64,000 bases of DNA from contig CAMAWM010000001.1 in assembly GCA_945861965.1 (NCBI GenBank), positions 43,565 to 107,564 on the forward strand, given 5' to 3'. The notes below the pieces were generated by a model. The model was not told the DNA's origin. It made no database searches and saw only the letters and a list, made by a program, of their open reading frames with translations. Positions 2,985-60,670 of this stretch are shown here, piece by piece. The translations under genes were made by a program, and so were the position numbers. The DNA is from Chitinophaga pinensis. Lineage in GTDB: Bacteria > Bacteroidota > Bacteroidia > UKL13-3. Every line of letters starts with the position of its first letter. The first letter of the stretch is position 1.

Positions 2985-3341
2985 ATGCCTAAACCAAAAA
3001 TCAATAAAACTGAGTACACTTTTTTTGATGACGTGTACGATGTTGTGCGGTTAATTCCTAATGGCAGAGTTACAAGTTATGGTGCCATTGCAAAATATTT
3101 GGGAAGTGCCCAAAGCAGTCGATTGGTTGGATATGCAATGAATGCGTCTGGTAAGGAAATGCCAGAGGTGCCAGCGCACCGAGTTGTTAATAGAAACGGT
3201 TTGTTAACGGGCAAACATTTTTTTAATAACGAAAATGAAATGCAAAGATTATTGGAATTGGAAGGTGTGAAAGTGAAAGAGGACAAAATTGCAGATTTCA
3301 AATTGCATTTTTGGGATCCAATTTTAGAACTTGATTTGTAA
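2985..3341 (+). CDS. Alkyltransferase-like (ATL) protein, MGMT/Ogt DNA-binding fold without the catalytic cysteine
   Basis: 118 aa. It carries an MGMT C-terminal-domain signature (NGRVTSYGAIAKYLG ... PAHRVVNRNG). The canonical PCHRV active-site Cys is replaced by Ala, as in ATL/YbaZ-type proteins. Confidence 0.7.
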   Translation: MPKPKINKTEYTFFDDVYDVVRLIPNGRVTSYGAIAKYLGSAQSSRLVGYAMNASGKEMPEVPAHRVVNRNGLLTGKHFFNNENEMQRLLELEGVKVKEDKIADFKLHFWDPILELDL

Positions 3342-3399
3342 ATAGACCACAGTATTTTTAAATTTAAGGTAAAGTTTTTAGCTAATTTGTGAGCAATAA

Positions 3400-5838
3400 A
3401 TGAAAATAATTTTTAACTGTCTTTTTTTAATTAGCATAAATTTATTATGTAATAATTTAGCTTTTTCTCAAGGCGAAGAGGATAGTTTGCAATTGTTGTT
3501 GCCATTCTCAAAAGACGAACAAAGGGTTGATATTTTAAATGCACTTTCTTTTTCGCAGAATGAAAACGACAGCTCAAAAAAAATTGATTATGCAAAACAG
3601 GCATTATCCATTTCAAATAAGCTCAATTATACTAAAGGATTAGCACAAGCGCACATTGCATTTGGAATAGTTGAAAATAACCGACAGCGATATAATTTAG
3701 CAAGAACAGAATTGTTGCACGGTTTGTTTTTGGCTTTAAAATCAACTGATTTGGCCACAATTGGAATAGCTTACGAACATTTAGGAAACCTTTATTTTTC
3801 TACAACTGATTACACAAAATCATTGCGCTATTATTCAGGTGCATTAAAAATTGCAGACCAAAGATTTGATATAAAAAATAGTGCTAATGTAACTTTTGAG
3901 ATAGGTGCACTTTATTTTGAATTGCAAGATTTGAATAAGGCAACAAGCTATTTTTTGCGTTCGTATAAATTATTCAAAAAATTAAAAAATGAATTAATTG
4001 CTGCAAGAATTGAAAACAAACTGGCAATTATTTATCAATCGAAAGGATACGATTTGAACGCGTTGCATCATTACATGCAATGTATAGAAGTATTTAAAAA
4101 GTTTGCAAGTTCAAGCGATATTTCATCGGTTCGAAATAATATTGCAACAATTTATTTAAAACGCGAACAGCCACAAAAAGCAGTAAAAATTCTTGCAGAA
4201 GCATATAAAATGGATGATGCTGTGAAAGATTATAAATCGGCAACAATTTCAGCAACAAATTTATCGTATGCATTTCTACAACTTCGAAAATTTGATTCTG
4301 CGATTTATTATGGTATTACGGCTTTTGAGATTGCAAAAAACAATAAATTTAAAAAGGAATATGCCTTTGCGGCATTTGCGTTAAATTCAGTTTGCAAACT
4401 AAAAGGAGACAATCAGAAGGCATTGTTTTATAAAAACGAATACGAGAAAATTAACAATGAATTGCTAGTAGAAAAAAAGTTGAATTTAGCAAAGCTTCAA
4501 GTAAAAGATGAAGCAGAAAAAAAAGCAGAGCCAATTGATTTATTGAAGAATGAAGATGCTAAATTGAACGAAATTAGTGGCAAACAAAATGCACCATTTA
4601 TACAATCAAATGGCAGTTTGTATTCTGTAATTGGATTGCTAATTGTTGTTGTTATTTCGCTGTTGTTTTTTATTTTTATTTCAAATAAAAAACGAAAAAA
4701 ACAGTTCAAGTCAGACTCAAATCAACTAGGTAGTATTAATAAATTGAATAGCGAAATTAGAACTCCGCTTAATTCGATTTTAGGTATGAGCAACTTGGCT
4801 TCACACAGTAAAAATATTCACGAGCTTCGCCAATATCTTTTAGGGATTAACCAATCGGGAGATGACTTGTTATTTGTTATAAATAATTTCAATTTGTATG
4901 TTCAAATTACAACAAAAAACGATAAATTAATTTCAACACAATTTGAATTTACAGAAAGCTTACGATTGCTTTTTAAATCCTTTGAAATGCAATGCAAACA
5001 GAAAGGAATTTTGTTCAATTCTGCACTTGCAAATGATATTCCGTTGATTGTAAATGGAGACAAAATAAAATTGCTGGCCATCATTCAAAACTTGTTAAAC
5101 AATGCATTGAAATTTTCTGAAAAAGGAGAAGTTAAAGTAGATGTAAAAACCATACAAATATCAAAAACGAAAGTTCATAAAATTCAAATAAAAGTAAGTG
5201 ATGAAGGAAAAGGAATTGATAAAAAAGTTGCAAATGAAAACAAGTTTGGAATAGGATTATTTATTGTAAAACATTTTGCCGAAAAGATGAATGGTGATTT
5301 TGAAATTAAAAATAATGAAACTGGATGTTCAGCTATTGTTAGTTTTGAGTTAAAAGCTATCACAGAAAATATTATTGATTCAATCGAAAAAAAATCAGCA
5401 GCAACTAATTCTTCATCCAAATCAATGTATCGGAAGCAAATTTTGTTGGTTGAAAGCAATCTATTAAATCAGAAAGTGTTGTTGCAGATTTTAAGAAATC
5501 ACGGATATATTGTAACAACAGCCAACAATGGAAAAGAGGCTTTGAGTTGCCTTCGACAATACAATTTTGATGTTATACTTATGGAAATTCAAACACCCAT
5601 TATGGATGGATTTGTTGCAACAAAACACATTAGAAACGATAAAGAATTTGAATGCGATAGCAATTTGCCGATTGTTGCCATGTCATCAAGTAACGACCCA
5701 TTAGAAATGCAGCGATGTTTTGAATTTGGTTTCAACGAGTATCTTATTAAACCGATAAATAAAGAAGTGCTTTTGAAAAAATTAGATGCATTGTGCACTA
5801 ATTATCAATCGTATTTATCAGAAACTAAAGGCAGATAA
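3400..5838 (+). CDS. TPR-repeat hybrid sensor histidine kinase / response regulator with atypical phospho-acceptor residues
   Basis: Signal peptide, ~380 aa of TPR-like repeats and one TM segment (LLIVVVISLLFFIFI). The HisKA-like box reads SEIRTPLNSILGM. The HATPase has an N-box (LLNNALKFS), a G1 box (DEGKG) and a G2 box (GIGLF). The C-terminal receiver reads LLVESN ... DVILMEIQTPIMDG ... YLIKP. Confidence 0.8.
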   Translation: MKIIFNCLFLISINLLCNNLAFSQGEEDSLQLLLPFSKDEQRVDILNALSFSQNENDSSKKIDYAKQALSISNKLNYTKGLAQAHIAFGIVENNRQRYNLARTELLHGLFLALKSTDLATIGIAYEHLGNLYFSTTDYTKSLRYYSGALKIADQRFDIKNSANVTFEIGALYFELQDLNKATSYFLRSYKLFKKLKNELIAARIENKLAIIYQSKGYDLNALHHYMQCIEVFKKFASSSDISSVRNNIATIYLKREQPQKAVKILAEAYKMDDAVKDYKSATISATNLSYAFLQLRKFDSAIYYGITAFEIAKNNKFKKEYAFAAFALNSVCKLKGDNQKALFYKNEYEKINNELLVEKKLNLAKLQVKDEAEKKAEPIDLLKNEDAKLNEISGKQNAPFIQSNGSLYSVIGLLIVVVISLLFFIFISNKKRKKQFKSDSNQLGSINKLNSEIRTPLNSILGMSNLASHSKNIHELRQYLLGINQSGDDLLFVINNFNLYVQITTKNDKLISTQFEFTESLRLLFKSFEMQCKQKGILFNSALANDIPLIVNGDKIKLLAIIQNLLNNALKFSEKGEVKVDVKTIQISKTKVHKIQIKVSDEGKGIDKKVANENKFGIGLFIVKHFAEKMNGDFEIKNNETGCSAIVSFELKAITENIIDSIEKKSAATNSSSKSMYRKQILLVESNLLNQKVLLQILRNHGYIVTTANNGKEALSCLRQYNFDVILMEIQTPIMDGFVATKHIRNDKEFECDSNLPIVAMSSSNDPLEMQRCFEFGFNEYLIKPINKEVLLKKLDALCTNYQSYLSETKGR

Positions 5839-12000: not shown

Positions 12001-13216
12001 AAATGTCAAATCATTGCCATCTGTTAGTGCATCAGCGAGTAGTAATTCTATTTGTAGTGGATCTTCCTCAACATTAAATGCAACAGTTATTGGCGATACG
12101 CCTTATACCTATTTATGGTATTCAATTCCAGCAGGATTTACATCTAGTATTCAAAATCCAACGGTTACTCCAACAGCAAACACTGTGTACAGAGTTATTG
12201 TAAGAAATGCGGGTTGCAACGATACAGCTGGAGCAAGTATAGCAATAACTGTTACTTCTGCACCAACTGTTACAGCCGTTGTTACTTCTAATATTATTTG
12301 TGCCGGATCATCAACACAATTAAATGCAATACCTAGTGGTGGTAATGGTGGATATTCTTATATTTGGTATTCAAGTCCAGGAGGCTTTACTTCTACACTT
12401 CAAAATCCGACTGTAAGTCCAATGCTTTCTTCTACTTATACGGTTATCGTAACAAGCAATAATTGTACTGGAACTTCAAATGTAAGTGTTACTGTAAATG
12501 CAATTCCATACGTTACAGCAGTATCCGAATTTAATCCGCTTTGTATTGGATCCTCAACACAATTGAATGCGTTATCGCCATTTCAAGATTCAAGCGCTTA
12601 TAGCTACTTGTGGTCGTCTATTCCATCAGGATTTACATCGTCTTTAAAAAGTCCGATTGTTGCACCAAGTATTCCAACAACATACAATGTCATTGTAAAT
12701 AATAATGGATGTGTGGCATCGTCTGGTGTTTATATTACCATTGCTCAATTACCTCCAACCCCAACTATTTCTCAAACTGGCAATATGCTTATATCAAGTG
12801 CAATTAATGGCAATCAATGGTATTTTGGAACTACATTAATTTCAAACGCAACTTCTCAAACCTATTCGCCAAGTATAAATGGAAAATATTCAGTTCAAGT
12901 TACTGATAACAATAAATGCAACTCTCCAATGTCAGCAGAACATCAATTTACCAGTGTTGGCGTCAACGATATTTTGAGTAATAATAATGTGAAAATTTAT
13001 CCCAATCCTAGCAACGGAATTTTGAATATTGAAAGCGATGTTTTGAAAAACACTAACTTCAGTATTGTTGTTTTTGATGCAATGGGAAAATGTGTTTATA
13101 CATTTAAAAATACATCAACAATAAATCTATCTGATTTAAGAGACGGCTTATATTCCGTTACCATTAAGTTAGAAAACGGAAGCACATACAATAAAAATAT
13201 TTTGTTGTATAGATAA
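9065..13216 (+). CDS. Giant secreted T9SS cargo protein: ASST-like beta-propeller N-domain, ten tandem ~80-aa Ig-like repeats and a Por_Secre_tail C-terminal sorting domain
   Basis: Signal peptide ending ...FQTIKAQ. The N-terminal ~400 aa resemble the arylsulfotransferase (ASST) family (HNDFHVMPNGNVLIM, WLHFTGIDYNAELDQIVVSSQNMNEFYVIDHSTT). The C-terminal ~80 aa match the T9SS type-A CTD (KIYPNPSNGILNIE ... DLRDGLYSVTIKLENG). Confidence 0.8.
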   Translation: MKQNKLISNFFFLFLFVISFQTIKAQRWGDYTLYSALNSTSTYLLDTAGNVFRTYNTNGAPTGAQCYLMPGGILYRAATTNNSFNGSGTTGRFQRLSANGTVNWDVTYSSSTYCAHNDFHVMPNGNVLIMAYELRSASEVVAAGSSVNHAMWMERIIEVQPTGGGGNIVWQWSSFNHLSQNYDSTKANYLPLIWAKPELLDINFNNNANTSDWLHFTGIDYNAELDQIVVSSQNMNEFYVIDHSTTTAVAATHSGGNSGKGGDILYRWGNPAAYSAGNNSNRIFNGINDAHWVPKNCPRGGYLVGFNNNTTATASSIDMANPPYFGYNYSLSGIAYSPSTYSYRRLCNGKTNSLGISQQLPNGNTLITMSNLGVIYEIDSNGTTVWSKTITGGTGVPNVPQALRYAACYVNGTPTITATTNKPSICAGTIVSLGANPAGGSNYTYAWKSSPAGLISTSQNPVVNPTVTTTYTVTVTSGLCTASSSVTVTVIPQPVVNVLSNPTTICLGTSSQLSATMSGTGTYTYSWVATPGTFTSNNQYPIVSPSVNTTYLVTATGTTNGCTDTGIALVNVGANPVVTINNSNPTICVGNSTRLTATASGGGNVYTYSWTSLPVGFTSTAPNPLVTPTGTTIYTVKVKSALCTDSTYQSITVTVNTYPTVVGSSDSNNFCAGGSTQLRSIASGGDSTYTYSWTSNPTGFTSTLQNPIVTPTTSTIYIIRVTSGGCTSAPYNVAVTVKRIPSFSISTTTPTICYGASAQLNITIVGDTPFVYNWSSNPSGFSSNLKNPIVSPLVNTVYSVLVTSGLNCSATSSITINIKPRPTVTASATSTLICSGGLARLNAEVTGDAPYTYSWTSIPAGFTSTISNPFVNPIVNTSYKVVVTSGGCTDTASNTVSINLINLTVNATANNTNICPGTSTSLNASPSGGSIYSYNWRSVPLGFNSTQQNPNINPAITRTYFVRVTSVGCSDTATSSVTVNVKSLPSVSASASSNSICSGSSSTLNATVIGDTPYTYLWYSIPAGFTSSIQNPTVTPTANTVYRVIVRNAGCNDTAGASIAITVTSAPTVTAVVTSNIICAGSSTQLNAIPSGGNGGYSYIWYSSPGGFTSTLQNPTVSPMLSSTYTVIVTSNNCTGTSNVSVTVNAIPYVTAVSEFNPLCIGSSTQLNALSPFQDSSAYSYLWSSIPSGFTSSLKSPIVAPSIPTTYNVIVNNNGCVASSGVYITIAQLPPTPTISQTGNMLISSAINGNQWYFGTTLISNATSQTYSPSINGKYSVQVTDNNKCNSPMSAEHQFTSVGVNDILSNNNVKIYPNPSNGILNIESDVLKNTNFSIVVFDAMGKCVYTFKNTSTINLSDLRDGLYSVTIKLENGSTYNKNILLYR
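10300..12760 (+). repeat. Ten tandem in-frame coding repeats (period ~240 nt, about 78-82 aa) inside the adhesin gene
   Basis: Each unit contains ICxGxSxxLxA ... SGG..YTYSW.S.P.GFTS...NP.V.P...T.Y.V.VTS..C; the ICxG motif recurs at 10337, 10577, 10823 and so on. The repeats are diverged at the nucleotide level and resemble SprB/PKD-like beta-sandwich repeats. Confidence 0.8.
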
Positions 13217-13238
13217 TCTATACAACAAAATATTTTCT
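13202..13238 (+). terminator. Rho-independent terminator with the adhesin stop codon in the hairpin loop
   Basis: Perfect 12-bp stem (ttgttgtataga at 13202-13213 paired with tctatacaacaa at 13217-13228). The loop taa is the stop codon at 13214-13216. The hairpin is followed by aatattttctt. Confidence 0.65.
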
Positions 13239-13348: not shown

Positions 13349-15283
13349 ATGAGTGAAATTAAAATTACTTTACCGGATGGCTCTGTTCGTTTGTATGCAC
13401 GGGGTTCGACATCCTTAGAAATTGCAAAATCAATTAGCGAAGGTTTAGCGAGAAATGTATTAGTTGCAAAAATTGGAAGTGAAGTACGCGATGCATCACA
13501 ACCAATTAACGAAGATGCAAATTTAACTTTACTAACTTGGAACGATGGCGAAGGTAAATCGACATTGTGGCATTCGTCAGCGCATATCATGGCTGAAGCT
13601 TTAGAGTTTTATTTTCCTGGAGTAAAATTTTGGGTTGGCCCTCCAGTCGATAATGGTTTTTATTACGATGTAGATTTGGGTGGACAAAATTTAAGCACAG
13701 ACGACTTTAAAAAAATTGAAGACAAAATGTTGGAACTTGCCCGCCAAAATAATTTGTTTCAACGCAAAGAAATTCCAAAACAAGAAGCCATTCAATATTT
13801 TACCGATAAAGGCGATGAGTATAAATTAGATCTACTTCAAAATTTAGAAGATGGAAATATTACCTTTTATACACAAGGAAATTTTACCGATTTGTGTCGT
13901 GGTCCACACATTCCAAATACAAGTTTTATCAAAGCTGTAAAACTAACAGCACTTGCTGGTGCTTATTGGAAAGGAGATGAGCGCAACAAACAACTTACAC
14001 GAATTTATGGAATAGCCTTTCCAAAAAAATCGGAGTTGGACGAATATTTATTGATGCTTGAAGAAGCCAAAAAACGCGACCACCGTAAGCTCGGAAAGGA
14101 ATTAGAAATATTTACTTTTGATGACGATGTTGGTCCAGGGTTGCCTTTGTGGTTGCCAAATGGCGCAGCAATTATTGAACGCTTGGAAGAGTTTGCAAAA
14201 AAAACAGAAGCCGAAGCTGGATACGTTAGAGTAAGAACTCCTCATATAGCCAAAGAAAGTATGTATCTGAAGAGTGGGCATTTGCCATACTATGCCGAAA
14301 GCATGTTTCCGCCCATGGAAATGGATGGCGATAAATACTATTTAAAGGCGATGAACTGCCCACATCATCACAAAATATTTGCTGCAACACCCAAAAGTTA
14401 CCGCGATTTACCTTTGCGATATGCCGAATACGGAATGTGTTATCGATACGAACAAAGTGGCGAATTATTTGGCCTGATGCGTGTGAGAAGTTTGAGCATG
14501 AACGATGCACATATCTACTGCACCGAAGCACAATTTGAAGAAGAATTTAAAAATGTAAACGACCTATACTTAAAATATTTTAAAGTTTTTGGAATTGAAA
14601 AATACGTGATGCGTTTTAGCAAACACGATCCCAAAAAATTAGGACAGAAGTATATTGACTCGCCCGAACTTTGGATTAAAACTGAAGAGATGGTTCGCAA
14701 AGTGTTGCAAAATTTGAATCTAAATTATATTGAAGTAGAAGACGAAGCAGCGTTTTACGGACCAAAGATTGATATTCAAATTTGGAGCGCAATCGGAAAA
14801 GAGTTTACATTGGCTACAAATCAGGTTGATTTTGCTCAAGCAGAACGTTTCGACCTTACTTTTACCAATGAGAAAAATCAGAAAGAACGACCATTAATCA
14901 TACATAGAGCACCTTTAAGCACACACGAAAGATTTATCGGTTTTCTGCTTGAGCATTACGCAGGCAACCTACCACTGTGGCTTTCACCTACTCAGTTTGC
15001 ATTATTGCCCATCAGCGACAAGTATTTAGATTACAGTAAAAAAGTTTTAGAATTGCTGAATTTTTCAGATATTCGCGGCTCGTTTGACAATCGTAGTGAG
15101 AAAATTGGCAAGAAGATACGTGATGCAGAAATGAAGAAAGTGCCTTATATGCTGATAGTTGGAGAGCAAGAAGCGAATGAAGAATGCGTTTCGGTTCGAA
15201 AACACGGAGGCGAAGATTTAGGAAAAATGAAGTTAGACGACTTTGTAAGCTATTTTAAAGAACAAGCAAAAATAAAAATTTAA
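13349..15283 (+). CDS. thrS: Threonine--tRNA ligase
   Basis: N-terminal TGS domain ([30 protein letters not shown]), a class II synthetase core and a C-terminal anticodon-binding domain. The ORF track begins at a TTG at 13337; the ATG at 13349 (MSEIK) is the more likely start. Confidence 0.93.
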
Positions 15284-15293
15284 TAAAAAACGA

Positions 15294-15902
15294 TTGGCAC
15301 TACCACCAAAAAAACCACCATTTAAAAAACCATCAGGAGGATTCGGAGGCGGAAGACCTTTTTTTCGCAAACCACCTTTAAAACCAGGAGAGGGGGAATT
15401 TAACATAAACCATCAGATTCGCGCAAGAGAGGTGAGATTGGTCGGTGAGGGAGTTGAACCCAAAGTATATACCATTGGTGATGCTTTGAGATTAGCTGAA
15501 GAAGCAGGAGTTGATTTGGTTGAAATATCGCCCAATGCTGATCCACCGGTTTGTAGGGTAGTTGATTATAAAAGATTTTTATACGAGCGTAAAAAGAAAG
15601 CAAAAGAAGCAAAAGCAAATCAGGTTAAGCAAGATATAAAAGAAATTCGTTTTGGACCAAATACTGACGAACATGATTTTGAATTTAAGTTGAAGCATGC
15701 CGAAAACTTTTTAAAAGAAGGACATAAAATTAAAGCCTTTGTTTTTTTTAGAGGTCGTTCAATTGTTTATGCTGAAAGAGGGGAAGTGCTTTTATTACAA
15801 TTTGCTCAAAAGTTAGCAGATTGGGGAAAGGTAGATATGTTGCCAAAATTGGAAGGTAAAAAAATGAATTTAGTAATGAGCCCGAAAGGGAAAAATAAAT
15901 AA
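15294..15902 (+). CDS. infC: Translation initiation factor IF-3
   Basis: IF-3 core ([16 protein letters not shown] ... [19 protein letters not shown] ... [16 protein letters not shown]). The tracked start is a TTG; IF-3 genes commonly use atypical starts. A Gly/Pro/Lys-rich N-terminal extension is present. Confidence 0.85.
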
Positions 15903-15911
15903 GTAAAGAAA

Positions 15912-16112
15912 ATGCCAAAAGTAAAAACAAACAGTTCAGCAAAGAAAAGATTTAAACTTACTCCTAGCGGAAAAATTAAACGCGGTAATGCCTACAAGAG
16001 TCACATTTTGACTAAAAAAACAACCAAGCAAAAACGCAATTTAACGGGAGTATCGTATATTAGTAAACCAGATTCTGGTTTAATAAAAAATTTGTTGGGT
16101 GTTGGAAAATAG
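15912..16112 (+). CDS. rpmI: 50S ribosomal protein L35
   Basis: 66 aa beginning [24 protein letters not shown]. Confidence 0.92.
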
Positions 16113-16240
16113 TTGATTCAGTTCAACTCTAACCTTACTCAATAAAGTTTCGGTTTTAAAATTATAACCCGAACAAAAGCTCATCAAGTGTCAACCAACC
16201 GATTGGCCGCTTAGGTTCAAAAAAAAACAAAAACAAAAAA

Positions 16241-16594
16241 ATGCCACGTTCAGTCAATTCAGTCGCATCGCGCAGGCGCAGAAAAAAACTCCTAAAACTT
16301 GCAAAAGGTTATTGGGGATCGCGAAACAATGTGCTTACAGTTGCTAAGCACGCCATCGACAAAGGTTTGGGATACGCATACCGCGATCGTAAAACCAAAA
16401 AACGCAATTTCCGTTCGCTATGGATTATTCGTATCAATGCAGGTGTGCGCGATTTTGGAATGAGCTATTCGCAGTTTATCGGATTAGCCAATAAAAAAGG
16501 TTTGGGATTAAATCGTAAAGTACTTGCCGACATGGCAATGAACGAACCCGATACCTTTAAATCCATTGTTGAGCAGGTAAAAGCTACAGCATAG
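16241..16594 (+). CDS. rplT: 50S ribosomal protein L20
   Basis: 117 aa beginning [30 protein letters not shown]. Confidence 0.93.
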
Positions 16595-16627
16595 ATATTT
16601 CTATTTTGAACTAAAGAGTTTATTTTA

Positions 16628-16668
16628 AAAACCAAAAACCCGCTTCCAAATAGAAGCGGGTTTTTTTA
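16628..16668 (+). terminator. rplT rho-independent terminator; left copy of a 41-bp direct repeat
   Basis: Stem cccgcttc/gaagcggg, loop caaata, then TTTTTTT. The sequence is aaaaccaaaaacccgcttccaaaTagaagcgggttttttta. Confidence 0.8.
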
Positions 16669-16808
16669 TTTTTGTAGTTTAATTTCCAATTCAAAAAATA
16701 ATCATTTGTTTCAAATTTAATTCCTGTTTTTGCCACAAAGCTTTACCTGCAAACTTTGAAAAAATTGATAACTGCCAACGGAACAGCATGAAATAGCGTT
16801 TAACATTA

Positions 16809-16928
16809 TTATACCCGTAAGGGGCGAAATAAAAATAAATATAATATATTATACCCGAGCGGTACATTATAATGATTTTCGATTATATTTGTACCCGTAA
16901 AGGTATAATACAAAATGAATAGTATTTC
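16809..16928 (+). promoter_or_regulatory. Three operator/promoter-like units upstream of the hipB-like gene, phased 40 bp apart
   Basis: ttatacccgtaagggg at 16809, ttatacccgagcggta at 16849 and ttgtacccgtaaaggta at 16889 are spaced exactly 40 bp apart. Each unit is followed by a tataat-like element and contains partial TACC..GGTA dyads. The ATG of the next gene is at 16915. Confidence 0.45.
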
Positions 16929-17346
16929 AGCATTTATCCGGTATCAGAGAAAAAAACTCGGAATAACTCAAGAGGAACTTGCAGCAAAAGCAGGTGTAGG
17001 TCTTCGCTTTGTTCGGGAGTTGGAACAAGGCAAGGCGACATTACAAATGGACAAAGTTGAACATGTGCTTCATTTGTTCGGATTTCAATTAACACCTAGC
17101 AGACAACGGATTGATCCATATACTATTTTTTGGAATTATTTGAATACGGGTGTAAAAATTAATCTCTCTAACAAGTCAATAAAATATGGAATTATAGTAG
17201 AAGAAATTATTGATCGAAATGAAAATAAAATTAGCGCATGGAAATTTGTTTCAAACAACAATGCAATCAAATACCAGCAAAAGCCCGATGATAAACTAAC
17301 AGAAACAATTATACATGCTGATATAATTGCAATTGAAAATCAGTAA
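16915..17346 (+). CDS. hipB: HipB-like XRE-family HTH regulator with an ~80-aa C-terminal extension
   Basis: N-terminal XRE-type HTH (LGITQEELAAKAGVGLRFVRELEQGKATLQMDKVEHVLHLFG). Its stop overlaps the next gene's start as ATGA. Confidence 0.7.
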   Translation: MNSISAFIRYQRKKLGITQEELAAKAGVGLRFVRELEQGKATLQMDKVEHVLHLFGFQLTPSRQRIDPYTIFWNYLNTGVKINLSNKSIKYGIIVEEIIDRNENKISAWKFVSNNNAIKYQQKPDDKLTETIIHADIIAIENQ

Positions 17347-17681
17347 TGCACTTTAATATGAAACAAGGATTCGTTTATAAAAAAAATAAAATGATCGGAT
17401 TGGTTTGGGAAGACGAAAACGGCTACTCTTTCCAATACAATGAAGACTATTTGCCCAATCCAATTTATGGAGAAGTAAGTAGAACTTTACCATTACGTTC
17501 AGAGGTTTTTACGGATAAAAATATGCTGCCTTTTTTTGACGGATTAATACCCGAAGGGTGGCTATTACAAATTGCCATTGAAAATTGGAAACTCAATCCA
17601 AGTGACAGAATGAGTCTATTATTAACACTTTGCAACGATTGTATTGGCGATGTTTCAATTTTTAAAGACAAGAAAAAATGA
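17346..17681 (+). CDS. hipS: Stand-alone HipA N-terminal-subdomain protein (HipS-like)
   Basis: 111 aa matching the HipA N-terminal 'couple_hipA' region (GLVWEDENGYSFQYNEDYLPNP ... LPFFDGLIPEGWLL). Start and stop are translationally coupled to both neighbours through overlapping ATGA sequences. Confidence 0.7.
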   Translation: MHFNMKQGFVYKKNKMIGLVWEDENGYSFQYNEDYLPNPIYGEVSRTLPLRSEVFTDKNMLPFFDGLIPEGWLLQIAIENWKLNPSDRMSLLLTLCNDCIGDVSIFKDKKK

Positions 17682-18613
17682 AATGCTTACTGTGCTATAA
17701 ACCTTTGGCCAATGATGAAATTGACTACCACTCAAAATGTGTAATCAAAGTTTTTGGTTTGAATCAAATGCCCGAATTTGAATTGGATGAAAATAAATTA
17801 AGCGATTATGCGAAGAGAATGATCTCTGCAAATACAACGATAACAGGCGTTCAGCCAAAACTGAGTTTATGGCTAGAAAACTCAAAAAAAAATACTCGAT
17901 TTACAATTGTTGACAATAAAAGCAACTATATCATTAAGCCGCAAAGTCAAACGTATTTATCGTTGCCAGAAAATGAAGATTTATGTATGCACTTAGCTGA
18001 AGCATTAGGAATTGAGGTGGCTAGACATAGTTTGATTCGACTTAAAAATGGAAAACTTGCTTACGTTACAAAACGATTTGATAGAGAAGCAGAGGATAAA
18101 ATTGCATGTGAAGATTTGTGCCAACTTTCCGAAAGTCTAACAGAACATAAATACAGGGGCAGTTATGAAAAAATAGGTAAAACCATTAGTCAATTTTCAT
18201 CGCAGCCCGGATTAGATGTTTTACATTATTATCAACTGGTTTTGTTTAGTTTTATTATTGGTAATGCAGACATGCACTTGAAAAATTTTTCTATGATTGA
18301 AAAAAAGAATGGAACGTTTTGCTTGAGCCCTGCATACGACTTACTTAGTACACACCTCGTAATAAAAAATGAAACTGAGCAAATGAGTTTAAACTTAAAT
18401 GGAAAGAAAAATAAACTTGCAAAAAGAGACTTCGACATCTTAGGTTCAAGTTTGCAATTGACTGAAAAACAAATTCAGAATTGCTATAAATCTATAATTG
18501 ACAGTTTTGATAAATTTTATTGGTGGATAGACAATTCCTTTCTACATGAACAGCAAAAAGACATTTTGAAAAAGTTGTTTACTAAAAGAATTGATTTGCT
18601 ATTACACAAATAA
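17678..18613 (+). CDS. hipT: HipA C-terminal-domain Ser/Thr kinase toxin lacking N-subdomain 1 (HipT-like)
   Basis: 311 aa. P-loop-like TITGVQPKLS; catalytic motif NADMHLKNFS (DxHxKN); a YDLLST motif equivalent to the Mg-binding DFG of HipA. Confidence 0.75.
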   Translation: MKCLLCYKPLANDEIDYHSKCVIKVFGLNQMPEFELDENKLSDYAKRMISANTTITGVQPKLSLWLENSKKNTRFTIVDNKSNYIIKPQSQTYLSLPENEDLCMHLAEALGIEVARHSLIRLKNGKLAYVTKRFDREAEDKIACEDLCQLSESLTEHKYRGSYEKIGKTISQFSSQPGLDVLHYYQLVLFSFIIGNADMHLKNFSMIEKKNGTFCLSPAYDLLSTHLVIKNETEQMSLNLNGKKNKLAKRDFDILGSSLQLTEKQIQNCYKSIIDSFDKFYWWIDNSFLHEQQKDILKKLFTKRIDLLLHK

Positions 18614-18657
18614 AATCGTTGGCGTGAAGTTAAAATTTACAGATTTGAAATGAAATT

Positions 18658-18698
18658 AAAACCAAAAACCCGCTTCCAAACAGAAGCGGGTTTTTTTA
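18658..18698 (+). terminator. Rho-independent terminator; right copy of the 41-bp direct repeat
   Basis: aaaaccaaaaacccgcttccaaaCagaagcgggttttttta, identical to 16628-16668 at 40 of 41 positions. Confidence 0.8.
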
Positions 18699-18757
18699 TG
18701 AAATTGTATTTTTTTTTTTAAAAAACTATTTAATTGCAGAACTAATTAATAAAAATC

Positions 18758-20074
18758 ATGAAAAACATTTTGCTAATCTTAAGTATTTTACTTTCGCATT
18801 TTGCGCAAGCACAAGTAGGAATTGGTACAAGCTCGCCCAATTCAAAAGCAGTGTTAGATTTAACATCTACCACCAAAGGATTGTTGGTGCCGAGAATGTT
18901 AGCTTCAGAAAAAACGGCCATTTCATCACCAGCAACCGGACTTTTAATTTACCAAACCGATGGCACAGCTGGGTTTTATTATTATACGGGTTCAGCCTTG
19001 ATACTTATTAGTTCCGAACTATTAAGTAAAACAGAAGGAACAAATTTTACAAGCAGTTTATTGGTTGGACATAAAACTGCAAGCGGAATAAGTAATGCAA
19101 ATAATAATACGGGTATTGGTATTGATGCATTAAGTTCGCTAACTACTGGAGATGAAAATGCTGGAGTTGGGTTTACTGCTTTGGGTTCAAATACAGGCGG
19201 AAATTATAATACTGCAAATGGTGCTTACGCGCTTGGTTTAAATACAAATGGGTCTAATAATGTTGCTGTTGGCAACTCTTCACTTTACAATAATGCCACA
19301 AGCGATAATGTTGCAGTTGGTTATAAATCACTTTTTACAAATACATCAGGTTCATCTCATGTTGCAATTGGTGCAAACGCACTTAAGTCAAATACAGTAG
19401 GGTTATATAATACAGCATTGGGCTGCAGTACTTTATATTCAAATACAAATACAGGTTTAAATACCGCTTGTGGTTATAAAGCGTTATTTTTAAGTATGGG
19501 GAATAATAATACTGCACTTGGAGCTGAAGCTGGATATGATATAACAACAGGCTCTAACGTAACATGTATAGGTTATAATGCACAGCCTTCTTCTGCAACC
19601 GTATCAAACCAATTTGTATTAGGTAATTCTTCTGTTACAGATTTAAGATGTGCGGATCAAGTGATTGCTGCTTTATCAGACAGAAGAGATAAAGCAGAAA
19701 TTAAAAATATTACCGAAGGAATTGATTTTGTAAAAAAATTAAATCCAGTAACCTTTACATGGAACACACGCGATAAAGCTAAGGTTGGGATTCCTGATGT
19801 AGGATTTATTGCACAAGAATTATTGGCATTGCAAAACAACTCAAAAATAGGCAAAAATTTAGCTTTGGTTAATGCCAGCAATCCTGAGAGATTGGAAGCA
19901 CAATATGGCAATCTGTTGCCGGTATTGGTAAAAGCAATTCAAGAATTGAGTGCGCAAAATGAGACACAAAAGAAATTGAATGAATTGCAGCAAAAACAAA
20001 TTGAAAGGCAACAAAACGAATTGGCTGAATTGAAAAAAAGTATAAACAATTCGCAAGAAAGTGCTAAGAAATAA
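18758..20074 (+). CDS. Secreted tail-fibre-like protein with a C-terminal intramolecular-chaperone (Peptidase_S74) domain and a coiled-coil tail
   Basis: Signal peptide. The N-terminus (VGIGTSSPNSKAVLDLTSTTKGLLVPRM) is typical of Bacteroidetes tail-fibre-domain proteins. The central region carries degenerate NTA.G/SNT.G repeats, followed by an S74 chaperone-like segment (DRRDKAEIKNITEGIDFVKKLNPVTFTWN) and a Q/E/L coiled coil. Confidence 0.6.
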   Translation: MKNILLILSILLSHFAQAQVGIGTSSPNSKAVLDLTSTTKGLLVPRMLASEKTAISSPATGLLIYQTDGTAGFYYYTGSALILISSELLSKTEGTNFTSSLLVGHKTASGISNANNNTGIGIDALSSLTTGDENAGVGFTALGSNTGGNYNTANGAYALGLNTNGSNNVAVGNSSLYNNATSDNVAVGYKSLFTNTSGSSHVAIGANALKSNTVGLYNTALGCSTLYSNTNTGLNTACGYKALFLSMGNNNTALGAEAGYDITTGSNVTCIGYNAQPSSATVSNQFVLGNSSVTDLRCADQVIAALSDRRDKAEIKNITEGIDFVKKLNPVTFTWNTRDKAKVGIPDVGFIAQELLALQNNSKIGKNLALVNASNPERLEAQYGNLLPVLVKAIQELSAQNETQKKLNELQQKQIERQQNELAELKKSINNSQESAKK

Positions 20075-20088
20075 TCAATAAAAATGCA

Positions 20089-21816
20089 TTAATCAACATT
20101 GTCGTGCAAAAACGAATTGTTGGTTTTCATTTCCGATTTTCCGTTGGCATCTTCAAATAAACTCAAGCGCGATAATTGTTGTTCGCTGCTATGTGGCACC
20201 TCGTCTAATCTTTTGTTTCTGCGTTTGTAAGCGGGTTCTTTTTCCAAATCGCGCAATCCCTGTGGACTGGCTATGGTTATGTTTAGGTTTTTTAATTCTT
20301 TGATGCGCAATATGTGTTTTTCAATTCTTTTATCTTGATCTTCATTTATTGGCTCGCTTGTATTTAAATTAGAAGTTGTTTCTGTAGTGCTATACATAAT
20401 TTGTTGAACATGGCTGCTAATTTCGGTTTCTTTGTTTGATGTCATTCCAAAAGTATCAAATTCCAATTCTTCTGTATTTTCCATTTCTTCTTCTATTTCT
20501 GGAACATCGTTCGGAAAATCATAGATTTCAGTTTCTTCGCTTTCGTCAAATGCTTCGATAGAATTGACAATTTCAGTGCTTTCAACTTCTGCTATTGCTT
20601 CCTCTTCGTTTTGCATAAATTTTAGCAATTCCGAATTCGGATCTATTTCATTATTAACTTCCGAAATAATTTCCAAATCAATGCTTGATTCAGTTTCTAT
20701 TTCCGATTCAACAGTGTCATTGATTACAAATTCAATGTCATCGCTCTCGTTATTTATTTCAGGAATAAATTCAATTTCTTCCATTTTATTTTCAATAGGA
20801 AATTGTTGGAATGAATTTTCAGTAGCACCAATAATAATTTTATTTTCACGAGGTTCAAATCCAGTTGCAATTAAAGTAACAGAAATTGATTTGCCCAAAT
20901 TTTCATCGAAACTTGTACCAAAAATCAATTCAGCAGTTAATCCACTTTCTTGTTGAATATAAGCTGAAATTTGCTCCACTTCTTCCATCAATATTTCATC
21001 AGTTCCTGAAGTGATATTGAGCAAAATATTTTTAGCTCCAGTTATTTGATTGTCGTTTAATAATGGCGAAGCCAATGCTGCTTTTACTGCATTGATTGCT
21101 CTGTTTTCTCCCTGAGCAGTTGCACTTCCCATCAATGCTACTCCACTTGATTTCATTACGGTTTTTACGTCTTCAAAATCTACGTTTATATATCCAGGAT
21201 GAGTAATTATTTCTGCAATGCCTTTTGCAGCGGTTGTTAAAATATTATTGGCGTGTCCAAATGCTTCGCGCAATGCAAGATTGCCAAACATTTCTTTAAT
21301 TTTATCGTTGCTAATAATAAGTAAACAATCAACAGATCTTTTTAAATTTTCGAGCCCTTCATTTGCGTATGATTTTCTGCGTTTGCCTTCAAAATTAAAT
21401 GGTGTGGTTACAATACCAACAGTTAAAATGTCCATTTCTTTTGCAGTTTTAGCAATAATTGGTGCAGCACCAGTTCCGGTTCCGCCACCCATTCCGGCAG
21501 TAATAAAAAGCATTTTGGTATTTACGCCCAACATATCAATGATGTCTTCAATGGCTTCCATTGCAGCTTTTTTGCCAACTTCGGGGTTTGCTCCAGCGCC
21601 TAATCCTTGAGTAAGATTTGCGCCCAATTGTATTTTATTTACAATTGTACTCGCTTCCAATGCTTGTAAATCGGTATTGCAAACAATAAAATCTACACCT
21701 TTAATTCCTTGTTCTTGCATATGATTTACAGCGTTGCATCCGCCACCACCTACGCCAATAACTTTTATAATTGACGATCTTTCTTTAGGCATCATAAATT
21801 TGAAATTTGTTTCCAT
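20089..21816 (-). CDS. ftsZ: Cell division GTPase FtsZ with a long acidic C-terminal linker
   Basis: IKVIGVGGGGCNAVNHM and the tubulin signature GGGTGTGAAP. About 230 aa of D/E-rich low-complexity sequence precede the conserved C-terminal peptide. Confidence 0.95.
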   Translation of the reverse strand: METNFKFMMPKERSSIIKVIGVGGGGCNAVNHMQEQGIKGVDFIVCNTDLQALEASTIVNKIQLGANLTQGLGAGANPEVGKKAAMEAIEDIIDMLGVNTKMLFITAGMGGGTGTGAAPIIAKTAKEMDILTVGIVTTPFNFEGKRRKSYANEGLENLKRSVDCLLIISNDKIKEMFGNLALREAFGHANNILTTAAKGIAEIITHPGYINVDFEDVKTVMKSSGVALMGSATAQGENRAINAVKAALASPLLNDNQITGAKNILLNITSGTDEILMEEVEQISAYIQQESGLTAELIFGTSFDENLGKSISVTLIATGFEPRENKIIIGATENSFQQFPIENKMEEIEFIPEINNESDDIEFVINDTVESEIETESSIDLEIISEVNNEIDPNSELLKFMQNEEEAIAEVESTEIVNSIEAFDESEETEIYDFPNDVPEIEEEMENTEELEFDTFGMTSNKETEISSHVQQIMYSTTETTSNLNTSEPINEDQDKRIEKHILRIKELKNLNITIASPQGLRDLEKEPAYKRRNKRLDEVPHSSEQQLSRLSLFEDANGKSEMKTNNSFLHDNVD

Positions 21817-55642: not shown

Positions 55643-55649
55643 TTTACTA

Positions 55650-55701
55650 AAAATACTTAATCAAAAAAGCAAAAGCTCTTTCTTCACTCCAATATTTTGT
55701 T
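55650..55701. repeat. Left copy of a ~55-bp direct repeat (degenerate duplicate of the 58547..59563 hydrolase 3' end)
   Basis: aaaatacttaatcaaaaaagcaaaagctctttcttcactccaatattttgtt, about 48/52 identical to 58603-58657. It begins 8 nt after the stop of the 55190..55642 ORF. Confidence 0.7.
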
Positions 55702-55779
55702 AGAAATGTAAAAAAAACACTCAACTATTTGTTTAATTGGGGTTTTTAATATTCTTTTGAAATTCAAAATATACATAGT

Positions 55780-57030
55780 ATGAGATTACAAATTCTGTGC
55801 TTACTTGTAGTTTTTGGAATAATAATTACAAGTTGTAAAAGGAGGCTGTCAACAGATTACGATTCGCCTTCTGCGAAAGTTCTTCAAAATTCTGCTGAAC
55901 AACAAAAATTGTTAAATAGAATAATTTGTTTACATGATTTATTTAAAGAAAACAGTCGGTTAGGTAAATCATCTTGGTCAGGCTCATATTCAATAGATTC
56001 AGCTATTATTTATGTTGAAGGGGCTTTAAATTACGAATGGGGTGATGCGCAATGTGATTTGCATGAATATATTAGTTATGAGACTGATGAATTTGAAGTG
56101 GAAATTAATAATAATACTGTGGCAGCAAGTGAAATGGATATATTATATGATTACTTAAACAATTATTCAGCAACAAATTATTATAGTGATTCTTCAGATA
56201 AGCATATACATTCAATAGACTTAGATATTAGTGATATTGAATCGTCAGCGAGCAATAAGCAACGGTTATTTGTGAGAATATTAGTTGCACAAAGAGCACA
56301 TGCTAATCCGGAATCAACCCAATCTAGTAATCCATTTAGTAATTTTAGTTACCGATATAATTATAATGGGGCTTTGTGCGCTGACCAGCCCTATTATTCT
56401 GAACTAGATTTTGGAATTTCTCGATCAGGACGTTGGCAAGATGTACATTTTGCTTGGCATGGCTTTGAATATGGCGGAGCTTTCCTTTTGGAAAGACAAG
56501 TAACAATGGATGAACAATACGTTCCAATTCCACCTCAAGGAAGTGCATATGATTATAGAGTTATTTTTATAAATATTGGTTATAATAATAATGGTGTCAG
56601 CCCGAATGGATTTATAACAGATAAAGACGAACCATTACCATCAAATACTTCAATGCCTAATGGTTCAACATTGGGTACTATTAATACCTCTAAACTCTAT
56701 TCGTATAGTTTTATCACTTCGCAAACTCAACAAAATAGACAAGATGCACATAACAATCTACCATGTTTATATGGAAATGATTTGTATTTTTACTATGGAT
56801 TTTTCCAAAACAATAATAACCTGATCGACAGATACAAACCATCGGCTGGTAAAGAGTTTCATAGTGTATTAGTTTATTCAAGATTTAAGAGATATACTGA
56901 TATACCACCAACTATTGCCTCAACTAAATTAAAGACAATTTCCTTAAATAGTGTTAATAAAGATATTTATTTCTGCCATGACTACAGATTATACTATGGA
57001 ATGCTTGTTTTTGGGCAAGGCTCTAATTAG
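55780..57030 (+). CDS. Lipoprotein of unknown function (N/Y/S-rich)
   Basis: Lipobox IITSC; no recognisable domain. Confidence 0.5.
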   Translation: MRLQILCLLVVFGIIITSCKRRLSTDYDSPSAKVLQNSAEQQKLLNRIICLHDLFKENSRLGKSSWSGSYSIDSAIIYVEGALNYEWGDAQCDLHEYISYETDEFEVEINNNTVAASEMDILYDYLNNYSATNYYSDSSDKHIHSIDLDISDIESSASNKQRLFVRILVAQRAHANPESTQSSNPFSNFSYRYNYNGALCADQPYYSELDFGISRSGRWQDVHFAWHGFEYGGAFLLERQVTMDEQYVPIPPQGSAYDYRVIFINIGYNNNGVSPNGFITDKDEPLPSNTSMPNGSTLGTINTSKLYSYSFITSQTQQNRQDAHNNLPCLYGNDLYFYYGFFQNNNNLIDRYKPSAGKEFHSVLVYSRFKRYTDIPPTIASTKLKTISLNSVNKDIYFCHDYRLYYGMLVFGQGSN

Positions 57031-57047
57031 ATAATAGTATAGACTTA

Positions 57048-60592: not shown

Positions 60593-60666
60593 TCCTTGGT
60601 AGCTCAGCTGGTTAGAGCACATGACTGTTAATCATGGGGTCGCTGGTTCGAGCCCAGCCCAGGGAG
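60593..60666 (+). tRNA. tRNA-Asn (anticodon GTT)
   Basis: 74-nt cloverleaf: acceptor stem tccttgg/ccaggga, D-arm gctc-agctggtta-gagc, anticodon arm catga-ctGTTaa-tcatg, 5-nt variable loop, T-arm gctgg-ttcgagc-ccagc. CCA is not encoded. Confidence 0.85.
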
Positions 60667-60670
60667 CAAA

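Follow-up and report, generated by a model that had tools for sequence, protein, structure and literature searches.

A strain-variable hipBST cassette between two copies of the rplT terminator, probably gained by insertion with long target duplication

Based on our data we propose, at a probability of roughly 0.7, that positions 16670-18699 of the window (the whole stretch of 64,000 nucleotides that was analysed) are a strain-variable hipBST cassette of an uncultured Bacteroidota-type bacterium, made up of a 1,988-bp insert and an extra terminator copy, that came to lie directly behind the rplT terminator through insertion with long target duplication. That the cassette is an accessory, strain-variable unit is shown by an insertion/absence polymorphism with exact junctions and a single-copy target, while the direction of the event, gain rather than loss, is what we infer from the comparisons below. 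The rplT gene is the final gene of the thrS-infC-rpmI-rplT operon, the synteny of which is kept in contigs L001-L009 and in the sister-species contigs L229-L235. The first-pass annotation had taken the segment for a discrete accessory unit inside a core operon; accessory it is, being absent from four contigs, but it lies at the 3' boundary of the operon, past the terminator, rather than inside. The features of the locus are as follows.

16241-16594, + strand: rplT (ribosomal protein L20), conserved left flank (Pfam Ribosomal_L20, E=2e-41)
16628-16669, + strand: direct repeat copy 1, the rplT intrinsic terminator hairpin (stem 16634-16646 / 16653-16665, loop CAAATA)
16670-16807, + strand: 5' spacer of the insert, 138 bp, lacking at the empty site and unconserved in hipBST relatives of other contexts
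16808-16914, + strand: putative promoter/operator region with three operator-like repeats (repeat-family analysis)
16915-17346, + strand: hipB-like gene, 143 aa (Pfam HTH_3, E=8e-9)
17346-17681, + strand: hipS-like gene, 111 aa, inferred antitoxin (Pfam Couple_hipA, E=2e-21)
17678-18613, + strand: hipT-like gene, 311 aa, HipA kinase core, inferred toxin (Pfam HipA_C, E=2e-49)
18614-18657, + strand: 3' spacer of the insert, 44 bp, unconserved in relatives, with the terminal hexamer GAAATT
18658-18699, + strand: direct repeat copy 2 (loop CAAACA), at the position of a hipBST terminator and upstream of the tail-fibre-like gene
18758-20074, + strand: tail-fibre-like gene, 438 aa, right flank (Pfam PTL_trimer and Peptidase_S74, an intramolecular chaperone)

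Repeat analysis of the 64-kb window gave a 42-bp direct repeat with 41 of 42 positions identical between its two copies, one base longer than the 41-bp repeat (40 of 41) recorded in the first pass; the sole mismatch is a T/C difference in the hairpin loop (16651/18681). Allowing up to three mismatches, the 42-mer is present in exactly two copies in the window, which disposes of the concern that it is an abundant repeat there, and in none of 100 dinucleotide-preserving shuffles. The rplT stop codon (16594) and the start of copy 1 are 34 nt apart. Both copies have the build of a full terminator hairpin, as had been supposed, with a stem of 13-14 bp containing six G-C pairs, an A-tract before it and a T-tract after it, and the dyad, which is perfect, is nearly central in the repeat, leaving 6 nt to the left of the stem and 4 nt to its right. 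On either strand the copies fold at -19 to -23 kcal/mol (z-scores -4.6 to -6.3), and terminator-like calls were obtained on the minus strand for both copies and on the plus strand for the left copy too. Across 15500-19000, Rfam gave nothing but sub-threshold matches of attenuator and sRNA models to the two hairpins, of the kind that any terminator would give. As the two-copy structure is also found in the independent assemblies L009, L010 and L011, we dismiss an assembly artefact.

The alignment with related genomes that had been suggested as a check recovered a single-terminator empty site in four metagenomic contigs of the same species (L001, L003, L004 and L006; flank nucleotide identity 98.8-99.0%), in which rplT is followed by one terminator copy, identical in sequence to copy 1, and then by the tail-fibre-like gene. 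Homology to the window breaks off exactly at 16669 and restarts at 18658, and these breakpoints support the earlier suggestion that the cassette was inserted at the rplT terminator with the target duplicated. The cassette is present in six contigs, and of these L005 and L008 have the same left-flank SNP haplotype as the empty contigs, indicating that presence and absence of the cassette segregate on one background; the cassette of L005 differs from that of the window by no SNP. The sister species (90.5% identity over thrS-rplT) has a single rplT terminator of different sequence, no cassette, and another gene set between rplT and ftsZ. Relatives that all carry two copies without the cassette, the pattern expected of convergent terminators, were thus not found, one copy being the state in both the empty-site contigs and the sister species. 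In the empty-site strains the tail-fibre-like gene is 77% identical over 18658-19261, with no alignment reported over 19262-19663, and 98.7% identical from 19664 onwards; with its 5' half so divergent, the alleles differ beyond a clean indel. As this adjacent 5' kilobase differs in the empty strains, it is conceivable that the cassette arrived within a larger imported block and that the original duplication was made in another lineage.

The three genes between the repeats encode HTH_3, Couple_hipA and HipA_C proteins and, judged by their sequences, form a complete hipB-hipS-hipT operon of the tripartite toxin-antitoxin type; the three toxin-antitoxin genes and phased motifs of the first-pass annotation are this operon and its operator-like repeats. 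The hipB-like product has an N-terminal HTH (residues ~6-58), matching HipB(Lp) of PDB 8EZT at E=1e-6 over residues 3-59 only, whereas the hipS-like product is the N-terminal subdomain of HipA encoded as a protein of its own (HI_0666, 7CZO, 2e-12; HipS(Lp), 7VKB_B, 3e-11; E. coli HipS, 7AB3_B, 2e-7). The hipT-like product matches HipT(Lp) (8EZR/7VKB, 2e-48) and E. coli HipT (7AB3_C, 3e-16), and the end of hipS and the start of hipT share 4 nt. In the printed alignment its GNADMHLKNFS and SPAYDLL stand opposite GNEDMHLKNFS and SPAYDLL of the HipT(Lp) chain, its TGVQPKLS is also aligned with the HipT(Lp) counterpart, and all three motifs are invariant among 25 homologs. We take GNADMHLKNFS and SPAYDLL to be the catalytic-loop and Mg-binding motifs of HipA kinases and TGVQPKLS to be their Gly-rich loop; so read, all three elements are intact in HipT. 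By homology with the HipBST systems of E. coli and Legionella, HipT is predicted to be a Ser/Thr kinase toxin that HipS neutralises, with HipB repressing the operon.

The gene order, the overlapping stop and start codons, HipS as HipA N-subdomain, HipT as kinase core with the common motifs and HipB as an HTH protein are all shared with HipBST of E. coli O127:H6 (PDB 7AB3-5), Legionella pneumophila Lpg2368-2370 (7VKB/8EZR) and H. influenzae HI0665/0666. Unlike these, HipB of the cassette has a C-terminal extension of ~85 aa, which gave no family match, and the operon is preceded by three operator-like repeats (TATACCCG..GGTA type) that begin at 16810, 16850 and 16890, a spacing of 40 bp. The third overlaps a TAtaTTTG box ~20 nt 5' of the hipB ATG, and the same three-repeat arrangement is found 5' of hipB in L214, L215 and L216; promoter and HipB-operator roles are presumed for 16808-16914. 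The GC content of the cassette is 0.30-0.34 and that of the flanks 0.32-0.41, a gap too small to be used as a sign of foreign origin.

We propose that the 42-bp target, the entire terminator hairpin, was left on each side of the insert by a host-driven process independent of the cargo. Copy 1 would keep terminating the highly expressed thrS-infC-rpmI-rplT operon, transcription of the cassette would start at a promoter of its own, which has three operators and is repressible by HipB, and copy 2 would terminate hipBST before the next gene. As both copies would terminate, the insertion would be transcriptionally self-insulating, and regulatorily harmless to the ribosomal-protein operon and the downstream gene alike. 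How the duplication was made may be envisaged in two ways: the joining of a linear fragment, with staggered breaks flanking the hairpin being filled in, comes close to an even chance, while the more doubtful option is that the cassette, as a circle with its own copy of the terminator, recombined with the chromosomal one in a Campbell-style single crossover of RecA type. The flanking repeats would permit precise loss or circle formation and, as recombination between the copies would regenerate the exact empty site, part of the empty alleles may have arisen by later loss. Cells that lose the cassette would be selected against through post-segregational killing, which would account for the over-representation of addiction modules among persisting insertions of this type. 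The hexamer GAAATT is found just 5' of copy 2 and also just 3' of the target repeat; we considered it as a microhomology junction and rejected it, as a simple microhomology join would not place it there and AT-rich DNA may contain it by chance.

The same window holds a second event.

55648-55698, + strand: repeat copy 1, the orphaned 3' end of a convergent hydrolase gene
55699-58601, + strand: insert with two genes and no mobility gene
58602-58652, + strand: repeat copy 2, 47 of 51 positions identical to copy 1

Its cargo, described as two secreted-protein genes, consists of a 416-aa gene without family match (55780-57030) and a gene for a 518-aa Por_Secre_tail protein (57048-58604). Copy 2 still lies within the alpha/beta-hydrolase gene (58547-59563, minus strand), the product of which has 338 aa in the window and 320 aa at the empty site, which is found in the sister-species contigs L239-L242. 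The repeats (~51 bp) are non-palindromic and unrelated to the 42-mer. This is an independent long-target-duplication insertion, and its cargo is neither restriction-modification nor toxin-antitoxin.

The nearest HipT outside the species is 77% identical, and the five closest relatives of the cassette (74-77% amino-acid identity) reside in five unrelated contexts, nucleotide homology with relatives being confined to 16808-18601 (blastn against L211-L217, with alignments that begin at 16808-16810). These five have no flanking repeats, no shared terminator after hipT and no like hairpin at their ends, and duplication is thus not an obligatory signature of the cassette family; a conserved terminator or att site carried by the cassette itself was dropped as a candidate on the same grounds. 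Among more distant hipBST loci, tight flanking repeats of local sequence were found in 6 of 62 as against none of 92 shifted controls (Fisher p=0.004), and by a looser test in 7 of 57 as against 2 of 217. Several independent repeat-flanked cases share a compact spacing of 1.8-2.2 kb. Nested in the operator region of one of the tightly flanked cassettes is a KilA-N gene with 64-bp repeats of its own. The repeats at the other events are of unrelated sequence and measure 42-676 bp; those of the second event and of other hipBST cases, 51-676 bp long, come from the 3' ends of a hydrolase gene and a DbpA-domain gene, from part of mnmE and from a whole HU-HIG gene. Together, the window's second event, the 6 of 62 hipBST loci and the nested KilA-N gene suggest a mechanism that is independent of cargo. 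In L167 and L172 the repeats occur in more than two copies or form part of longer repeated ORF-like stretches; as these may be dispersed repeats and not duplicated targets, we give them low weight. At L164 the second mnmE fragment is without the last 84 bp of the gene, which is not what a simple target duplication would leave, nor a simple Campbell integration.

Could the hairpin instead be the core site of a tyrosine/Xer-type recombinase acting in trans, the cassette being a non-autonomous element of the CIME/IMEX/pdif type and the two copies its attL and attR? The 13-bp inverted arms, the 6-nt spacer and the almost centred dyad resemble the arm-spacer-arm geometry of recombinase core sites. 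Moreover, in L207, one of the distant cases, the repeats on either side of a ~2.0-kb hipBST cassette without internal integrase are the 3' 43 nt of a tRNA-Met, from the anticodon loop on, and a tRNA 3'-end repeat beginning there is the classic footprint of a tyrosine integrase, so that the repeat-flanked set is probably mechanistically mixed. Nevertheless we hold the trans-acting recombinase to be quite unlikely, as no integrase or transposase was found in the cassette or among the Pfam-annotated genes ~6 kb to either side and no recombinase in 20 further ORFs of the window, which bears out the absence of an integrase noted at first; as the ends of the closest relatives bear no similar hairpin; and as the second event and other hipBST cases have unrelated, non-palindromic repeats that a single att specificity cannot explain. 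When the 42-mer was read by eye, neither attC boxes (GTTRRRY/RYYYAAC) nor an Xer/dif-like consensus was seen. An eroded remnant, that is, a plasmid or island that integrated at the terminator and then suffered internal deletions sparing only the toxin-antitoxin operon, is very unlikely. HipT relatives of 42-48% identity do reside on Bacteroidota plasmids (Persicobacter, Runella, Phocaeicola, Bergeyella, Bacteroides, Parabacteroides, Hymenobacter), and the 138 bp and 44 bp of non-conserved insert sequence could be leftovers, yet these amount to merely 182 bp of non-operon sequence, without pseudogene fragments, the repeats lying 245 bp (5') and 44 bp (3') from the operon; independent hipBST cases are equally compact, and repeated trimming that spares both repeats each time is not parsimonious. 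As for phage, viral contigs hold HipT relatives of 45-48% identity only, phage records gave no meaningful HipT match, and these contigs did not contain the exact sequence of a 27-nt probe taken from the 138-bp spacer; as \"these contigs\" the viral contigs are meant.

Two further readings concern the repeats themselves. The cassette-bearing state might be the older one in the species and the empty alleles recent, precise deletions between the 42-bp repeats, a proposal about the direction of the polymorphism and not about the first origin of the repeats. Such recombination would yield exactly the single-copy site observed, and filled (L005, L008) and empty (L001, L003, L004, L006) contigs do share one left-flank haplotype; but the sister species lacks the cassette and has a single terminator, hipBST relatives reside in unrelated contexts, the empty alleles carry a different tail-fibre allele instead of the filled allele minus the cassette, and addiction would be expected to counter-select loss, which together make this polarity unlikely. 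The other reading, that the cassette's own terminator only resembles that of rplT and nothing was duplicated, starts from the stem AAACCCGCTTC-N6-GAAGCGGGTTT, which a pattern scan of the genome collection found exactly at at least 119 loci in many phyla, with no rplT-adjacent locus among the 103 scanned of the at least 119 matches listed; this shows the stem to be that of a generic terminator, convergent across taxa. Over the full 42-mer, however, the best matches at these 103 loci have at least four mismatches, in loop and flanks, whereas the copies in the window differ at 1 of 42 positions with the loop and 10 non-stem bases included. As, in addition, such a terminator is missing downstream of hipT in the closest relatives of the cassette and the homology of the empty site stops exactly at the repeat borders, convergence is effectively refuted.

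Insertion with long target duplication, the reading that we prefer, has been described for restriction-modification complexes (Nobusato et al. 2000, Gene 259:99; Furuta, Abe & Kobayashi 2010, NAR 38:2428, PMC2853133), where target duplications of 45-420 bp, often across a stop codon, accompany insertions without mobility genes (Furuta et al. 2010, PMC2853133). The definition used there comprises repeats >30 bp, an insert <20 kb without mobility genes, a one-copy empty site in a close relative with both flanks aligned, and a repeat that is not multi-copy; in repeat length, empty site, and insert size and gene content the hipBST insertion falls within it. Its 42-bp repeat is close to the listed cases of 45-47 bp (PMC2853133) and likewise resides at a gene 3' end or stop region, so that the target stays functional, and its cargo is again of the addiction type. 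Unlike the restriction-modification insertions, the target is a whole intrinsic terminator hairpin in a Bacteroidota-type host, the same window contains a second event with another cargo class, and the cargo is a kinase toxin-antitoxin without DNA-cleaving activity. Furuta et al. 2010 suggest breakage by the restriction enzyme as the driving force (PMC2853133), an idea that cannot apply to a cargo that cannot cut DNA; a host process is indicated instead. The literature that we searched contained no report of a toxin-antitoxin cassette with long target duplication, nor of terminator duplication.

Other classes of small elements resemble the cassette in part. CIMEs and tRNA 3'-end islands are also short, integrase-free elements between direct repeats, one of which restores the target, but the hipBST repeat is a terminator, no integrase was found nearby and the att core is not reused; L207 alone has the typical tRNA-Met 3'-half repeat. 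Integron attC cassettes, Xer-dependent IMEX and Acinetobacter pdif modules are small, with or without a promoter, recombinase-less and dyad-bounded, and frequently carry toxin-antitoxin genes, whereas the bounding sites here are host-terminator copies in direct orientation and the locus has no integron integrase or cassette array, its context being a ribosomal-protein operon that adjoins a cell-division gene cluster. A direct target duplication around the insert is shared with classical transposons; their duplications are usually <10 bp, or 19-26 bp for IS1630 (Furuta 2010, PMC2853133), in contrast to 42 bp at the cassette, which also has no transposase and no terminal inverted repeats, no pairing being found between 16670-16720 and 18600-18657.

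Gene gain by long target duplication without a recombinase has seldom been documented, the cases described so far being those of restriction-modification genes, and how small modules such as toxin-antitoxin and defence genes enter chromosomes without visible mobility machinery is poorly understood; here the states before and after are seen at single-base resolution in a natural population. We suggest, as a tentative and rather doubtful generalisation, that cargo-independent long target duplication is a general recombinase-free route by which Bacteroidota-type genomes gain small cassettes, with hairpins and gene 3' ends as preferred entry points, and that the unit between the repeats could alternate with a circular form and enter related genomes afresh by short-homology recombination. 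The association with restriction-modification and toxin-antitoxin genes would then reflect survivorship, as flanking repeats make inserts prone to loss and only addictive or beneficial cargo persists. The observations cited for such a route are two events in one 64-kb window, the nested KilA-N gene and ~10% of the sampled hipBST loci; the preferred entry points would comprise terminators, tRNA 3' halves and stop regions. Were the wider pattern true, repeats >30 bp that match a single-copy site in a sister strain would be a cheap finder of recent gene gains in metagenome-assembled genomes. The locus itself offers a simple experimental system, in the form of a 2-kb circle or linear fragment with one terminator copy.

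The 1,988-bp segment carrying hipB, hipS and hipT lies between two direct copies of a sequence that repeat finding and mismatch-tolerant pattern search showed to be 41/42 identical; the 41-bp repeat pair described around the cassette in the first-pass annotation is thus real and extends to 42 bp.

16628-16669: copy 1, the rplT terminator hairpin, which begins 34 nt past the stop codon of rplT
18658-18699: copy 2, whose sole mismatch to copy 1 is a C for a T in the hairpin loop

Each copy is a complete terminator hairpin, as had been claimed, with a stem of 13-14 bp that includes six G-C pairs, an A-tract 5' and a T-tract 3' of it, and a folding energy of -19 to -23 kcal/mol (z-scores between -4.6 and -6.3 for either strand). 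A terminator-like score was obtained for both copies on the minus strand and also for the left one on the plus strand, and the only Rfam hits of the hairpins, sub-threshold attenuator and sRNA models, are generic terminator matches. The 42-bp repeat occurs exactly twice in the 64-kb window and in none of 100 shuffles. We rejected convergent terminators as its origin: the stem by itself is unspecific, at least 119 exact matches to it being spread over many phyla, but in a full-length comparison of 103 of the matches listed the nearest still differed at 4 or more of the 42 positions, as against 1 of 42 between the window copies.

Pfam and sequence searches against proteins of solved structure identify the three genes between the copies as hipBST, in agreement with the toxin-antitoxin assignment made at first pass.

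16915-17346: HTH_3 protein, 143 aa (ORF and Pfam; matches Legionella HipB 8EZT in the HTH part only)
17346-17681: Couple_hipA protein, 111 aa (ORF and Pfam; matches HI_0666, HipS(Lp) and E. coli HipS)
17678-18613: HipA_C protein, 311 aa (ORF and Pfam; matches HipT(Lp), E=2e-48, and E. coli HipT, 3e-16)

The HipT protein contains GNADMHLKNFS, SPAYDLL and TGVQPKLS, which align with their counterparts in HipT(Lp) and which we take to be the catalytic, Mg-binding and Gly-rich-loop motifs of HipA kinases. Judged by sequence, the three-gene unit is a bona fide hipBST-type operon, for which toxicity and a kinase target may be presumed. Upstream of hipB lie three operator-like repeats (starts at 16810, 16850 and 16890), a layout also present 5' of hipB in relatives. 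HipB carries a C-terminal extension of ~85 aa (residues ~60-143; window 17090-17346) that has no match in Pfam or PDB; the protein is 143-173 aa long in the closest relatives (74-77% HipT identity) and ~70-97 aa in the more distant hipBST loci examined.

The cassette is preceded by thrS-infC-rpmI-rplT and followed by a 438-aa PTL_trimer/Peptidase_S74 ("tail-fibre-like") gene, beyond which ftsZ and ftsA lie on the opposite strand; it is therefore placed past the terminator of the operon, at its 3' boundary, and not inside a core operon as originally proposed. Among same-species metagenomic contigs, found by exact-sequence look-up of the L20 protein, four (L001, L003, L004 and L006) follow the window at 98.8-99.0% identity as far as 16669 and from there join straight onto the sequence 3' of copy 2. 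Alignment of related genomes thus reveals an empty site, with a single terminator copy between rplT and the tail-fibre-like gene that has the T loop of copy 1. The cassette is present in L002, L005, L008, L009, L010 and L011, and those contigs that cover both copies have T in the left and C in the right one. Several contigs end at or inside a repeat copy (e.g. L007 at 16669 and L005 within copy 2), which is the expected behaviour of an assembler when both alleles coexist in one sample. The sister species, 90.5% identical across thrS-rplT, also has one rplT terminator, of different sequence. Because the empty contigs and the sister species carry one terminator copy, a terminator pair that exists in relatives without the cassette does not explain the arrangement; within the 64-kb window, with its two copies, the repeat is not an abundant generic one either, and the earlier interpretation of an insertion with target duplication is supported.

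Between rplT and ftsZ, two conserved blocks evidently enclose a variable spot. It is occupied in the sister-species contigs L229-L235 by a 134-aa gene and one for a 1,392-aa Por_Secre_tail protein, and in the window (16582-20089) by hipBST and the tail-fibre-like gene, the entire content being different. The tail-fibre-like gene of the empty-site strains also diverges from that of the window over its 5' half (77% identity over 18658-19261, no alignment over 19262-19663 and 98.7% from 19664), and therefore the filled and empty alleles do not differ by a clean indel; the cassette could have arrived inside a larger imported block. In these strains the gene is split into ORFs of 90 and 321 aa, by a frameshift near the equivalent of window 19010 (L001 6499-7775 compared with window 18700-19663), and its 5' region exists in the population as two very divergent alleles (77% or unalignable). 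A SNP table of the left flank showed that the haplotype of the empty contigs at 13909-15773 is common to the filled contigs L005 and L008, another haplotype being common to the window, L002 and L009. Presence and absence of the cassette thus segregate on one background, which implies recent recombination, gain or loss. The cassette of L005 has 0 SNPs relative to the window, and 15774-16669 likewise has 0 SNPs that could mark the position of a crossover.

Outside the species the closest HipT is 77% identical, and relatives occur in five unrelated contexts, among them 3' of a relE/HTH pair, 3' of DUF4249 and Por_Secre_tail genes, 3' of uvrD and 3' of prs-rplY-pth-YCII, in none of which were flanking repeats or a similar hairpin found. 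Nucleotide homology of these relatives to the window covers 16808-18601 only, that is, the operators and the operon. The 138 bp that follow copy 1 and the 44 bp that precede copy 2 are specific to the window insertion.

A second insertion in the window is flanked by repeats whose sequence is unrelated to the terminator repeat.

55648-55698 and 58602-58652: second repeat pair, 51 nt, 47/51 identical, spaced 2,954 bp, formed by the 3'-terminal stretch of a convergent alpha/beta-hydrolase gene

The insert carries two genes, one for a 416-aa protein that matches no family and one for a 518-aa Por_Secre_tail protein. In the sister species (L239-L242) the site is empty and the hydrolase has 320 aa, compared with 338 aa in the window. 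Both copies have at least six derived states in common relative to the sister species and therefore come from one lineage, which fits duplication in place or a circle kept within the lineage.

Flanking repeats were also found at distant hipBST loci from metagenomes and viral contigs (HipT identity 45-68%). In a uniform test, tight repeats flanked 6 of 62 loci and 0 of 92 controls, which were shifted positions in the same loci (Fisher p=0.004), and a looser test gave 7/57 and 2/217, respectively. These repeats are pieces of local sequence.

L207, 1482-3596: ~2.0-kb hipBST unit; repeat formed by the last 43 nt of tRNA-Met, anticodon loop through 3' end (100%)
L152: repeat formed by a DbpA-domain gene's 3' end
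L164, 3806-6313: hipBST between an intact mnmE and an internal mnmE fragment (292-296 bp, 90% identity) that lacks the last 84 bp of the gene
L176: the repeat is a 676-bp stretch (94%) with a whole HU-HIG gene inside
L137: repeats of ~170 bp around the whole unit

The set is probably mixed. L207, with no integrase between its tRNA-Met repeats, looks like a non-autonomous integrative element bearing the footprint of an integrase, and dispersed repeats may be involved in L167 and L172. The arrangement in L164 matches neither plain target duplication nor the outcome of one simple crossover. Within L137 a KilA-N gene (3443-4255, minus strand) is nested in the hipBST operator region (locus 3336-4424) and is flanked by its own 64-bp repeats of that region, 92% identical. 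The second window event, the distant hipBST repeats and the nested KilA-N event are evidence for a more general process.

The closest match for the cassette is "insertion with long target duplication", known for restriction-modification genes, whose inserts lack mobility genes and whose flanking repeats of 45-420 bp, often spanning a stop codon, are single-copy sequence in the sister strain; DNA breakage by the restriction enzyme was suggested to be involved (Furuta et al. 2010, PMC2853133). Of four criteria that we drew from that study, the cassette has three in common with the reported cases: repeats of >30 bp, an insert of <20 kb without mobility genes, and an empty site. For the fourth, uniqueness of the repeat in the genome, the search covered the 64-kb window. 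The literature searched yielded no paper linking toxin-antitoxin systems to this little-studied kind of insertion, of which the cassette, with its toxin-antitoxin cargo, terminator target and Bacteroidota-type host, is a new member. A ComEC-type competence protein (DUF4131 and Competence domains; 52988-55054, minus strand) is encoded next to the second insertion and matters only because the reported cases are mostly from naturally competent species (PMC2853133).

The insertion duplicated the whole hairpin without a cis-encoded recombinase, and independent events use unrelated repeats; a host-driven, cargo-independent process would seem to lie behind the duplication. Our preferred route, to which we tentatively assign a probability of about 0.45, is that staggered breaks to the left and right of the hairpin would be joined to a linear fragment and then filled in, which would account for fresh insertions into unrelated target sites. 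A weaker candidate is that a circular form of the insert, bearing a copy of the site, would recombine with the chromosomal one by a single crossover; this route would account for spread among relatives and for imperfect repeats (90-98% identity) and is consistent with the ComEC homolog, and its first event would need a separate origin.

A transposon footprint was rejected, as the insert lacks terminal inverted repeats and as much as 42 bp was duplicated, and so was an integrase-bearing island: in keeping with the first reading of the cassette, neither the insert nor the Pfam-annotated genes of the flanking contigs nor 20 further window ORFs yielded a recombinase. The sole mobile-element trace is a 70-aa transposase-like remnant (61161-61373) beside tRNA-Asn (60593-60667). 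The remnant resembles the C-terminus of a DDE transposase, and the equivalent place in the sister species (L239 and L240) holds DDE_Tnp_1_6 ORFs of 141-146 aa. A recombinase supplied in trans and working on the hairpin dyad is improbable, and erosion of a larger element is more doubtful still.

After the insertion, copy 1 would go on terminating the ribosomal-protein operon, the cassette would run from its own repressible promoter and the downstream gene would be shielded by copy 2, and therefore neither neighbour would be disturbed. The flanking repeats would permit precise loss of the insert and post-segregational killing would counter-select that loss, and survivorship may thus plausibly explain the recurrence of addiction modules among insertions of this class. 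An AT-rich perfect palindrome with a 20-bp stem (13194-13237), placed between thrS and a 1,383-aa arylsulfotransferase-like Por_Secre_tail gene, is 95-98% conserved in all related contigs, including those of the sister species.
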